Source: Promethearchaeota archaeon
Lineage (GTDB): Archaea > Asgardarchaeota > Lokiarchaeia > Sigyniarchaeales > SOKP01
Direction: 5' to 3'
Length of the DNA: 17,742 nucleotides
Assembly: GCA_016930515.1 (NCBI GenBank)
Contig: JAFGGO010000150.1
Location: forward strand, 1 to 17,742
Below, one piece after another: positions 1,938-13,600 of this stretch. The notes under the pieces were generated by a model. The model was not told the origin of the DNA and did no database searches. It saw only the letters and a list, made by a program, of their open reading frames with translations. Each line of letters starts with the position of its first letter. Position 1 is the first letter of the stretch. The translations under genes were made by a program, and so were the position numbers.

Positions 1938-2507
1938 TTACAGGTCTAGCGTTTTGAGCAAGACCCCGTTAAGATAGACCAGGAGGTTCTTTCCCCCGTT
2001 GATTTCTTGAACCTCCACGGTCTTTCCCGCCAACTTGTAATCGATGGTGTGATATTTACCCTTGTAACCGATAGTACCTGCGTTAGCTATTTTGCGCGTT
2101 TCTTTCCTCTTTCTTGTTGGCACGGTGTAAGCGCGGGATTGAACGAGGTGATCCCGATAATATATATCGATCTTGTCGTCGTATTCCACGATTTCGACTC
2201 TCACCCCCGAATAACCCGGAGGGAGGGCGTATTTCTGGGATTTATAAGAGATCTCGTTGGATTTATTGACTCGTCTTACCTCTACTTCGGCCATCCAACG
2301 TTTCCATTTTTCGCTCACCTCTAAGGGTTGGAAAACGCGCCATTCGGTGGCAAAGTACCGACTGCCAGGAGGCCCCTTTTCTGGCAGGCTGCGATGAGGC
2401 TTCTCCGTATTGTACCATTCCACCCATTTTTTAAATAAGGTGTTAAATTCGGCCAGGCTCCGAACGCCCCCTTCTTTTATTTCGTTTCGAGCCTCCAATA
2501 GAAACAC
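1938..2507 (-). pseudogene. C-terminal fragment of a DDE integrase/transposase (end of rve core plus Mu-transposase C-terminal-like beta domains)
   Basis: WVEWYNTEKPHRSL matches the YN..RPH.SL motif at the end of rve cores. It is followed by RRVNKSNEISYKSQKY and a second RKIANAGTIGYKGKYH repeat. The HTH and the D,D,E residues are missing, and there is an in-frame stop shortly upstream. Confidence 0.8.
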
Positions 2508-8621: not shown

Positions 8622-8725
8622 CGGGCCATGTGGGAATCGAACCCACGACCTTCAGGTTAAAAGCCTGCTGCGCTACCTGCTTGCACTTCAAGCGCTATTT
8701 GCGCTTAAATCTGCGCTAATGGCCC
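8622..8725 (-). tRNA. tRNA-Lys(UUU) with a 30-nt non-canonical D-loop intron (15/16; 8681-8710)
   Basis: Acceptor GGGCCAT/ATGGCCC-G73, D stem GCGC/GCGC, anticodon loop CTTTTAA, T arm GTGGG-TTCGATT-CCCAC. The intron ATTTAAGCGCAAATAGCGCTTGAAGTGCAA forms a 9-bp hairpin with central helix GCGC/GTGC and bulges AG|A and AA|G. CCA is not encoded. Confidence 0.93.
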
Positions 8726-9933: not shown

Positions 9934-10046
9934 GCCTCTGTGGCTTAGCGGTATAGAGTAATTCTCCGTAAGAGCGATTGATTCGTAATCAGAATATACT
10001 CTGAAGAAACATCAATCGGTCGTGGGTTCAAATCCCACCAGGGGCT
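9934..10046 (+). tRNA. tRNA-Thr(CGU) with two introns: 18 nt at 21/22 (9954-9971) and 23 nt at canonical 37/38 (9988-10010)
   Basis: Acceptor GCCTCTG/CAGGGGC-T73. Spliced D arm GCTT-AGCGGTA-GAGC, anticodon arm ATTGA-TTCGTAA-TCAAT, T arm GTGGG-TTCAAAT-CCCAC. Both inserts fold as BHB-type motifs (GCGG/CCGT; TTCG/AGAA with a TCAGA/TCTGA inner helix). Confidence 0.92.
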
Positions 10047-10149: not shown

Positions 10150-11166
10150 TTAGATATCTTCAGTAACGACAAACCTTTTTATTATCTGTAAGGCAAGCAT
10201 TTTAAAAGCATCATTAATATTTTCACCTGTCTTGGCTGATGTTTCAATATAGGAAAGGCCTAATTTTTCTGCCATTTCTTGACCTTGTTCCCTGCTAACT
10301 TCTCTATCGCCTTCTAAATCAATCTTATTACCAACCAAGATTAATGATATATTCGGTGAGGCCGTTTTTATTTCTTTATGCCATCCTTCAAGGTTTTCAA
10401 ATGTTTCGTTCCTAGTTACATCGTATACTAATATTCCGGCTTCTGCGTTTTCTACATATGTCATTCTCACGCGCTTGAATTGTGATTGTCCTGCTAGGTC
10501 CCAAATAACAAAGCGTACTTTGCTACTCAATCCATCAAATTCACATTCCTTCTTCATTATTGATGTTCCAATTGTAGATTTGTAATCAGTTTCGTATTTC
10601 CCTTCTACAAACCTATGAACCATGCTAGTTTTACCAACGCCTCCCTCTCCTCCTAAAATCAATTTATATGCGTATTCTCCAGATTGTATTTTAATACGCT
10701 GGAGCGTATCTTTTTTACGAGAAATATCCTTGCCCTCTCCCCTACTTATAATTTTTGGGATGACAGGACTCACCGTCCGACCATCAAATATTCGAGCAAT
10801 CTTCTCAGCAGTTAAGTAGGCGTAAGGAAATACAGGATCTATCATTGCTACTGCGTCTAATACGGTTACAAAAACCGCATCTGGTCCAGCTTCGCAAAAA
10901 ATAAGCCGATAATCTTCAGTGTCAAATGTACCCGTACCAAAAGCCCCTGAACTAAACTCTTTAGTGATTCTTGTTAAAACAGGCTCCACTAAGGCGCTTA
11001 CGCCACCAACTATTTCCTCGTCAACGGATTTTTGAGAATCCTTTCCTGAAATCGAGTCTAATATTAATCCTTCTCTATTAACAACGATCACGGCTATTAA
11101 ATCCTTACCTACTTCTTGAACATACCATTGAAGCAACGCGGTGAGTTTTTTTCTATCGACAGACAC
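10150..11166 (-). CDS. N-terminal Roadblock/LC7 (MglB-like) domain fused to a Rab-like small GTPase
   Basis: The N-terminal DLIAVIVVNREGLILDS...LIFCEAGPDAVFVTVLD fits the roadblock pattern. GTPase motifs: G1 GEGGVGKT, G2 YKSTIG, G3 WDLAGQ, LVYDVT, G4 NKID, G5 ETSAK. No C-terminal Cys prenylation motif. GTG start. Confidence 0.92.
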   Translation of the reverse strand: MSVDRKKLTALLQWYVQEVGKDLIAVIVVNREGLILDSISGKDSQKSVDEEIVGGVSALVEPVLTRITKEFSSGAFGTGTFDTEDYRLIFCEAGPDAVFVTVLDAVAMIDPVFPYAYLTAEKIARIFDGRTVSPVIPKIISRGEGKDISRKKDTLQRIKIQSGEYAYKLILGGEGGVGKTSMVHRFVEGKYETDYKSTIGTSIMKKECEFDGLSSKVRFVIWDLAGQSQFKRVRMTYVENAEAGILVYDVTRNETFENLEGWHKEIKTASPNISLILVGNKIDLEGDREVSREQGQEMAEKLGLSYIETSAKTGENINDAFKMLALQIIKRFVVTEDI

Positions 11167-12127: not shown

Positions 12128-12299
12128 GCAGGAGTTGCCAAGATGCAGATCCTTTAGAATCGCATGGGAACCTGGTCTACGGCGCTGGACCGAGGCTCCA
12201 GAAAACTCTTATTAAATAAGGGTTGGACAATCTCATAGGAGTTCGTGGGTTCGAAGTTAAACAAGCGTGCCTTGTTTGAGGAAATTCCCACCTCCTGCA
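12128..12299 (+). tRNA. tRNA-Leu(GAG) with three non-canonical introns: 15/16 (12143-12170), ~43/44 (12202-12230), 59/60 (12256-12285)
   Basis: Acceptor GCAGGAG/CTCCTGC-A73. Spliced D region GCCAAGCCTGGTCTACGGC, anticodon arm CTGGA-CCGAGGC-TCCAG, class II variable arm CTC-ATAG-GAG, T arm GTGGG-TTCGAAT-CCCAC. Each insert is a hairpin with BHB-like geometry. The boundary of intron 2 is uncertain by ±1 nt. Confidence 0.9.
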
Positions 12300-12430
12300 T
12301 TTATTTTAAAACACATGTTCTAAAAATTGTTATTCTTGGTTTAATTAAGATTTTTAAATCAAATTAAATAAGGAAGTATTAAATTATAAAAGAATTTCTC
12401 TATAATTAGCACTTAAAAAGGTAGATATCG

Positions 12431-13600
12431 ATTAGATATACAAGCGATTATTTTCCACTATCACATGTAAAGGCGCTTAATTTTAGTCGGAAGATCTTAA
12501 CAGATGGAGAAATTAAGGCTCTTAATTATATTCAGAACGAACTTGCTAATGAAAACATAAAAAATAATGCAGAAATCTTCAAGTGGAAATATCATTTCTT
12601 TAGCAGATCGTTATTTTTAGCTATAAATTCCATAATTGTGACTTTTTTTTTATTAACTCTGATATTTAAGTTTTTCCCACTAAAAATTATCTTGAGTAGT
12701 ATAATTTTTATATTATATTTGTTTCTATTGCTCAATAGTGGAAAAATTTCCTTGCCTTTTGGAAAAGAAAAGGAATCCAGAAATATTATTGGAGAGATAA
12801 ACGCTAAACATAAAACTTTCAAAAGACCACTATTTATATTTATTTCCTTTTATGGTTCAACAATAAAAAAATACAAACCTCTATATTCAAACATTATAAA
12901 TTCTTTTATTCTATTTTTATTACTCGATTATTTATTGTTAATTTTTATTGCTCATATTTTATCTTATTTATCATCATTATTTGAAATATTTTTAATTGTG
13001 AGTATAGAAATTTTTTCAATTATTTCAATACTTAATCGTGAGAGAGATGAATCCCAAGATTTTCCTAATCATTCATCAGGAGCTGCTGTTCTATTAGAAA
13101 TAGCTAAAACATTGAGAAAAGATGTTTTAAATAACATTGATGTAATTTTTTTATGGTGTGGTGGGAAAATTACTGGAAATAGGGGATTAAAAGCATTTTT
13201 AGATAGACATGTTATTGATATTTATCAAGAATACGACCTTAATCGATTTTATTGCTTGAATATAGATAAAGTCGGTGAAAATATCGGACTTTTTAATATT
13301 AAGAGAATAAAAAAGAAAGAATTAGGTGAATTGGATGTTATAATAGAAGCGACTGCAAAAAATATGAAGTTTCCCCTGTCCAATTTCACATCCATAACTT
13401 CAAACCTGAGTAATCCTGCCATAATTAACTCCTTTACAAAAAGAATAAAAAAATATCCTCACACATCTACTTTAACCTCCAACGAGAAAACCAGACCTTT
13501 TAATTACATAAAAGAGAGTTCTACTTATGAAGAGCAATTAAATAATTGCGTTAGGCTGAGTTTAAACATTTTAGAAAGCCTCGATATGAGAGTAAAATAA
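12431..13600 (+). CDS. Membrane-embedded M28 peptidase-fold protein, apparently catalytically degenerate
   Basis: M28-like segments RNIIGEI, NHSSGAAVLLEIAK, DVIFLWCGG and LNID, with two TM hairpins. The frame is open from 12425 with a typical M28 N-terminus (HVKALNFSRKILTDGEIKALNYIQNEL). The first ATG/GTG/TTG is only at 12638, so the ATT start at 12431 is inferred. Confidence 0.72.
   Translation: MRYTSDYFPLSHVKALNFSRKILTDGEIKALNYIQNELANENIKNNAEIFKWKYHFFSRSLFLAINSIIVTFFLLTLIFKFFPLKIILSSIIFILYLFLLLNSGKISLPFGKEKESRNIIGEINAKHKTFKRPLFIFISFYGSTIKKYKPLYSNIINSFILFLLLDYLLLIFIAHILSYLSSLFEIFLIVSIEIFSIISILNRERDESQDFPNHSSGAAVLLEIAKTLRKDVLNNIDVIFLWCGGKITGNRGLKAFLDRHVIDIYQEYDLNRFYCLNIDKVGENIGLFNIKRIKKKELGELDVIIEATAKNMKFPLSNFTSITSNLSNPAIINSFTKRIKKYPHTSTLTSNEKTRPFNYIKESSTYEEQLNNCVRLSLNILESLDMRVK

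Follow-up and report, generated by a model that had tools for sequence, protein, structure and literature searches.

A leucine tRNA gene interrupted by three short non-canonical introns in a Lokiarchaeia genome

The 172 nucleotides at positions 12128-12299 (plus strand) of contig JAFGGO010000150.1, from a Promethearchaeota archaeon (genome G000 hereafter), are a genuine leucine tRNA gene, tRNA-Leu(GAG), with three short introns, which are very probably excised by the tRNA-splicing enzyme. The introns (28, 29 and 30 nt, i.e. 87 of the 172 nt) are located at 15/16, 43/44 and 59/60 in Sprinzl numbering, and without all three of them the gene folds into an 85-nt class II cloverleaf (Table 1). We are highly confident that the locus as a whole is a functional, single-copy tRNA-Leu(GAG) gene with three independent EndA-type introns, spliced to an 85-nt tRNA.

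The coordinates and junctions given in the initial annotation for three non-canonical introns proved to be correct, and ARAGORN calls the product of their removal. Indeed (i) among the eight combinations of removed introns, ARAGORN called tRNA-Leu(GAG) only for the triple removal and returned nothing or a forced wrong call for the other seven, (ii) a blind genome-wide profile search that allows for introns placed the identical three cuts, and (iii) none of the junctions (AG/A..AA/C, AG/A..AA/T and AA/G..AT/T, slashes marking the cuts) can slide without altering the spliced product. The long variable arm, A73, the leucine anticodon and the D- and T-loop invariants of a class II tRNA-Leu are all present; position 33 is a C where U33 is expected. 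The four exons are collinear within the 172 nt, so that the gene is neither split nor permuted. A bacterial promoter scan, which is not applicable here, found nothing.

Table 1. Features of the tRNA-Leu(GAG) gene and of its neighbours (positions in the window)
Feature	Positions	Strand	Evidence
tRNA-Lys(TTT), 30-nt intron at 15/16, central pairs 4/4, 9-bp stem	8622-8725	-	
tRNA-Thr(CGT), introns at 21/22 (18 nt) and 37/38 (23 nt)	9934-10046	+	Rfam, profile search
Roadblock-Rab GTPase gene, synteny marker	10150-11166	-	
Exon 1, tRNA positions 1-15: acceptor 5' strand, D-stem 5' strand	12128-12142	+	removal test, profile search, homology
Intron 1, 28 nt, 15/16 (D-loop), HBh'	12143-12170	+	
Exon 2, tRNA positions 16-43; C33 at 12191, anticodon GAG at 12192-12194	12171-12201	+	
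Intron 2, 29 nt, 43/44	12202-12230	+	
Exon 3, tRNA positions 44-59: variable arm with ATAG loop, T-stem 5' strand, T-loop	12231-12255	+	
Intron 3, 30 nt, 59/60 (T-loop), hBHBh' with G57.G mismatch	12256-12285	+	
Exon 4, tRNA positions 60-73; discriminator A73, CCA not encoded	12286-12299	+	
T-rich tract right after the gene, likely terminator	12300-12307	+	

The window (the whole 17,742-nt stretch of DNA that was analysed) holds genes for RpoB, PolC, a Roadblock-Rab fusion and other Asgard-type proteins, in agreement with the Asgard host that had been thought probable. The suspicion that standard scans may miss the gene was also borne out, as neither ARAGORN nor Rfam RF00005 reports it, in the window or in the whole genome, and Rfam detects just the two neighbouring tRNAs in the window. 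Introns interrupt each of the three tRNA genes in the window, and the ARAGORN genome run mis-calls those for Thr(CGT) and Lys(TTT). The product of the GTPase gene has a Ras/Rab Pfam match (residues 168-329) behind a Roadblock-like N-terminal domain, and this fusion gene adjoins tRNA-Leu(GAG) throughout the family. A membrane-protein frame (12420-13600, plus strand) is open from about 12428 and has no ATG, GTG or TTG before 12638; the corresponding site in the same-genus genomes G002 and G005 likewise offers no ordinary start codon, and an unusual start codon is possible. A C-terminal fragment of an integrase/Mu-transposase (1938-2507, minus strand) adjoins rpoB. The polC genes of two relatives (G002, contig C17; G026, contig C108) code for 1620-1624 aa and carry an insertion of ~450 aa near residue 920-930, probably an intein.

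The splice junctions are fixed by the existence of intronless orthologs. The spliced product is identical at 81 of 85 positions to the intronless, syntenic ortholog of G001, a genome of the same genus, and two of the four differences form a compensatory T-stem pair; in the family, 26 full-length intronless matches are 91-100% identical to the G001 ortholog. The Rab and PolC genes serve as landmarks of the orthologous locus, and tRNA-Leu(GAG) is present as one syntenic copy throughout the family. Within the genus, homologs of intron 1 are found in G002, G003 and G004 and are missing from G001 and G005, and homologs of intron 2 are found in G002, G004 and G005; in both introns the motif ends are kept across congeners and the stem changes are compensatory. 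Intron 3 is found in the genus only in G000 (the G003 copy ends before site 59/60). That the inserts could be an assembly artefact or the scars of mobile-element integration is extremely improbable: the contigs examined from the source run do not cover tRNA-Leu(GAG), but homologous introns 1 and 2 recur in independent genomes with identical insertion points, the splice motif of intron 3 is the best of the three, and neither a second copy of any intron nor a duplicated tRNA end was found in genome G000.

Relaxed splice motifs, C33 and an assembly that is 94% complete would also suit a pseudogene from which the inserts are poorly removed, Leu(GAG) being supplied by another, unassembled gene. This explanation is very unlikely, given that the exons are conserved with compensatory pairs, that a single syntenic copy exists family-wide, and that introns 1 and 2 are each kept in four species with covarying stems. 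C33 is characteristic of the family: it occurs in most intronless orthologs (groups g1, g2 and g3), with U33 in the others, and is therefore not a sign of decay. It is also called in Glu tRNAs of G050 and G086, and it is known in tRNA-Cys of Sulfolobales (PMC7668247). No separate intact Leu(GAG) gene, which the initial annotation had named, together with a lack of spliced junction reads, as evidence against its reading, was found in the G000 assembly, nor does any other GAG anticodon arm of that assembly sit in a tRNA context. The codons CTC and CTT make up 32% of the leucine codons in G000, and the mature tRNA-Leu(GAG) would read CUC and CUU.

The gene belongs among the archaeal EndA-spliced multi-intron tRNAs, but its motifs are relaxed instead of strict. 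A strict hBHBh' motif (a 4-bp helix between two 3-nt bulges, each cut after its second base) is absent, all three central helices having three of four pairs, whereas a relaxed motif (HBh', BHL or a 3-of-4 helix) is present above chance at each of the homology-defined junctions. In intron 1, G10-A13 pairs with intron TGGG (3/4, G10.G mismatch), the intron stem has 3 bp and the exon-side helix is absent. In intron 2, C38-C41 pairs with intron GGAC (3/4, C38.C mismatch), a motif that competes with the anticodon stem and must displace it. In intron 3, the TTCG of the T-loop pairs with GGAA (3/4), the intron stem has 9 bp and the native T-stem serves as the outer helix, which makes it the best motif of the three. 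When introns were shuffled at the same sites, the observed motif was reached in 0.3%, 0.6% and 0 of 20,000 shuffles for introns 1, 2 and 3, respectively (P = 0.003, 0.006 and <0.0001).

The predicted cost of forming the motif is 2.9 kcal/mol for intron 3, 4.1 kcal/mol for intron 1 and 6.7 kcal/mol for intron 2, so that the T-loop intron is probably the one cut most easily. The three motifs are predicted to be able to co-form, that at 43/44 being a minor conformer. Nested or dependent introns were considered and rejected for this gene, since the motif costs barely shift when other introns are removed. Judged by the G000 sequence alone, intron 2 could also be excised in another register (27 nt, 12203-12229), which would add two bases to the foot of the variable arm and yield an 87-nt tRNA; this register offers four of four central pairs (TCCA/TGGA) at a similar predicted cost (5.6 versus 6.3 kcal/mol for 43/44). 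The chance that this register is the one used is small: in every intronless ortholog a single base separates the anticodon stem from the variable arm, and two other introns at 43/44, one in G026 and one in tRNA-Asp(GTC) of G000, fit no register but 43/44, the Asp intron sharing with intron 2 the mismatch at base 38. Together these observations favour the 43/44 register for intron 2.

With the cuts at 15/16, 43/44 and 59/60, the 172-nt precursor would be cleaved at three relaxed bulge-helix-bulge motifs by an (alpha-beta)2 splicing endonuclease, RtcB would rejoin the exons into the 85-nt class II tRNA, and CCA would be attached after splicing. The T-loop motif fits the folded tRNA, and cleavage there would probably be easiest; the D-loop and 43/44 motifs, which borrow bases from the D-stem and the anticodon stem, would require local refolding, and the site predicted to be cut last is 43/44. 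Two EndA paralogues are encoded in genome G000 (contigs C83 and C30). One of these, the alpha subunit, aligns best with the catalytic subunit of Aeropyrum pernix, an alignment that extends over the specificity loop with its lysine. The host encodes an (alpha-beta)2 EndA of broad specificity, with the L1/CSL loop. This loop enables the enzyme to cut non-canonical and relaxed introns (PMC3241643), and Asgard EndA is reported to have it (PMC5829648).

RtcB was not found in the G000 assembly (94% complete). An assembly gap is likely, as RtcB is encoded ~10 kb from tRNA-Leu(GAG) in several relatives and the G000 contig ends 5.4 kb after the tRNA. A lineage-wide loss was rejected, since RtcB is present in 112 of the 121 related genomes searched and in four of the five congeners. 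In G017, G034, G021 and G061, the GYDINCG motif of rtcB is disrupted by a 29-nt bulge-helix-bulge insert (helix 4/4, 9-bp stem), which is absent in G005.

The intron content of tRNA-Leu(GAG) in the six same-genus genomes is 0 (G001), 1 (G005, intron 2), 2 (G002, introns 1 and 2), 2 (G004, the same two), at least 1 (G003, intron 1, the contig ending inside the copy) and 3 (G000). A tree of concatenated RpoB, PolC and Rab, based on partial sequences of ten relatives, has the topology (((G000,G003),((G002,G004),G005)),G001) with supports of 90-100. In the simplest scenario, the gain of introns 1 and 2 followed the branching of G001, and intron 3 is a later, recent gain; intron 1 was apparently lost precisely in G005. 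The introns would be passengers gained and lost over time, those at 43/44 and 15/16 having entered before G000 split from its congeners and that at 59/60 afterwards. A simple ladder from 0 through 1 and 2 to 3 introns was rejected, as the tree demands a precise loss or a replacement of intron 1 in G005.

No donor for any of the three introns was found in genome G000, the best BLAST matches being 13-14 nt with E above 0.1. The tRNA-His gene (contig C34, 3569-3700, minus strand) has a T-loop intron that is 30 nt long, like intron 3, and aligns with it in register with compensatory stem pairs. A common origin of the two is possible; transposition between T-loop introns was rejected, as the match of 18 of 30 positions (P = 0.03, uncorrected) is not significant after multiple comparisons.

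Other genera have introns in tRNA-Leu(GAG) at 21/22, 30/31, 43/44, in the variable arm and at 59/60; for example, the 43/44 intron of G026 (27 nt, central pairs 4/4) is unrelated to intron 2. In G086, three tRNA genes, those for Leu(GAG), Asp and Ile, carry three interruptions each. These different introns and the triples of G086 indicate that the multi-intron condition recurs in the family. The 15/16 insert of Leu(GAG) in G086 and G148 is 59-60 nt long and looks like a 30-nt intron nested in a 29-nt intron, the inner one in G086 having a 4/4 helix and a 9-bp stem; such nesting would mean four splicing events in that gene.

In genome G000, about 35 tRNA genes were located, 25 of which carry 33 introns (~0.9 per gene), in a census with automated boundaries in which several isoacceptors were not found. 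The initial annotation had inferred heavily fragmented tRNA genes; they are fragmented, just moderately so, tRNA-Leu(GAG) being the sole triple-intron gene among those located. Positions 15/16, 43/44 and 59/60 are also used in other tRNAs of this genome. A tRNA-like gene with an enlarged anticodon region (contig C139, 18798-18877, minus strand) was left unassigned by the profile model. In G005, ~30 compact tRNA genes form a dense array (contig C215, 6484-15106), which is probably a virus, a mobile element or a contaminant; the host tRNAs are scattered.

Three-intron tRNAs had been described in the initial annotation as rare and best known from Thermoproteales, which goes too far: such tRNAs are no rarity in Asgard archaea, and Thermoproteales are no longer the main group to show them. 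In three Asgard genomes, 92-95% of the tRNA genes contain introns, over half of them several (Valentin-Alvarado 2024, PMC11291895). Supplementary Data 4 of the same study lists a Leu(GAG) with three introns in 176 nt for Atabeya-2 and with three to four for Freya, as well as introns after base 15 for Freya Pro, Ile2 and Lys. A three-intron tRNA-Leu(GAG) is therefore already published for other Asgard groups, and the G000 gene is a fresh example and not a new kind of gene. The tRNAs of Atabeyarchaeia and Freyarchaeia resemble those of G000 in their Asgard host and in having several non-canonical introns per gene, a likeness in number and position; however, G000 belongs to another class (Promethearchaeia/Lokiarchaeia) with a lower burden of ~0.9 per gene.

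An Asgard census (bioRxiv 10.64898/2026.10.13.758758) reports 2.2 inserts per gene, with up to five, in the richest families and 0.91 in others, so that the value for G000 is at the ordinary Asgard level. The same census describes repeated terminal (recent) gains, introns systematically missed by annotators, relaxed motifs in the D-arm and variable region, little copying between tRNA genes and two EndA paralogues, and G000 is like it in all these respects. It takes in only genes detected by tRNAscan-SE, does not name Loki/Promethearchaeia in its text, and gives a median intron length of 22-23 nt, whereas the non-canonical introns of G000 centre on 30 nt. It also names the arrival of intron DNA as the central open problem.

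Triple-intron tRNAs have long been known in Thermoproteales, e.g. tRNA-Pro(UGG) of Pyrobaculum islandicum (PMC4090602, PMC4033280). They share with the G000 gene the three introns, the bulge-helix-bulge or relaxed motifs and an (alpha-beta)2 EndA, and 59/60 is among their listed positions. However, the P. islandicum gene includes a canonical 37/38 intron, whereas all introns of the G000 gene are non-canonical, and Thermoproteales introns recur as families across tRNAs, whereas the three Leu introns of G000 are unrelated to one another, and no clear copy of them exists elsewhere in that genome. Indeed, closely similar introns shared between tRNA genes, as in the transposed families of Thermoproteales, were not found in G000.

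The ~30-nt introns form a real size class. In G000, 19 of the 22 non-canonical tRNA introns measure 27-32 nt, as against 4 of the 11 canonical ones, which range from 17 to 56 nt (Fisher P = 0.006, for a length range picked post hoc), and 12 of the 22 are exactly 30 nt long. The 27-32 nt trend is also seen in other genomes (19 of 26 in G086; 7 of 12 in G029). Furthermore, a 30-nt insert splits the DEAGRGP motif of RNase HII (contig C58, near 3956, plus strand), with no intact DEAGRG found elsewhere in the genome, and a 31-nt insert splits the TGGGDCPG motif of PFK (contig C126, minus strand). A tentative reading, which draws on data beyond tRNA-Leu(GAG), is that one ruler-like mechanism still gives birth to ~30-nt EndA introns in this Lokiarchaeia family, in tRNA and protein genes alike; new introns might then be 30-nt near-perfect hairpins, such as intron 3, that decay with age, as introns 1 and 2 may have done.

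In summary, the multi-intron tRNA phenotype extends to a Lokiarchaeia family that is not singled out in published work. The triple intron alone is unsurprising, and the value of the gene is that of a test locus, in which intron differences among six congeners allow a single substrate to serve for studies of gain, precise loss and the order of splicing. The ~30-nt size class common to tRNA and protein-gene inserts is a lead on the arrival of introns, and if a single mechanism did produce them, the tRNA-Leu(GAG) locus would be a direct test case for how introns arrive in archaea.
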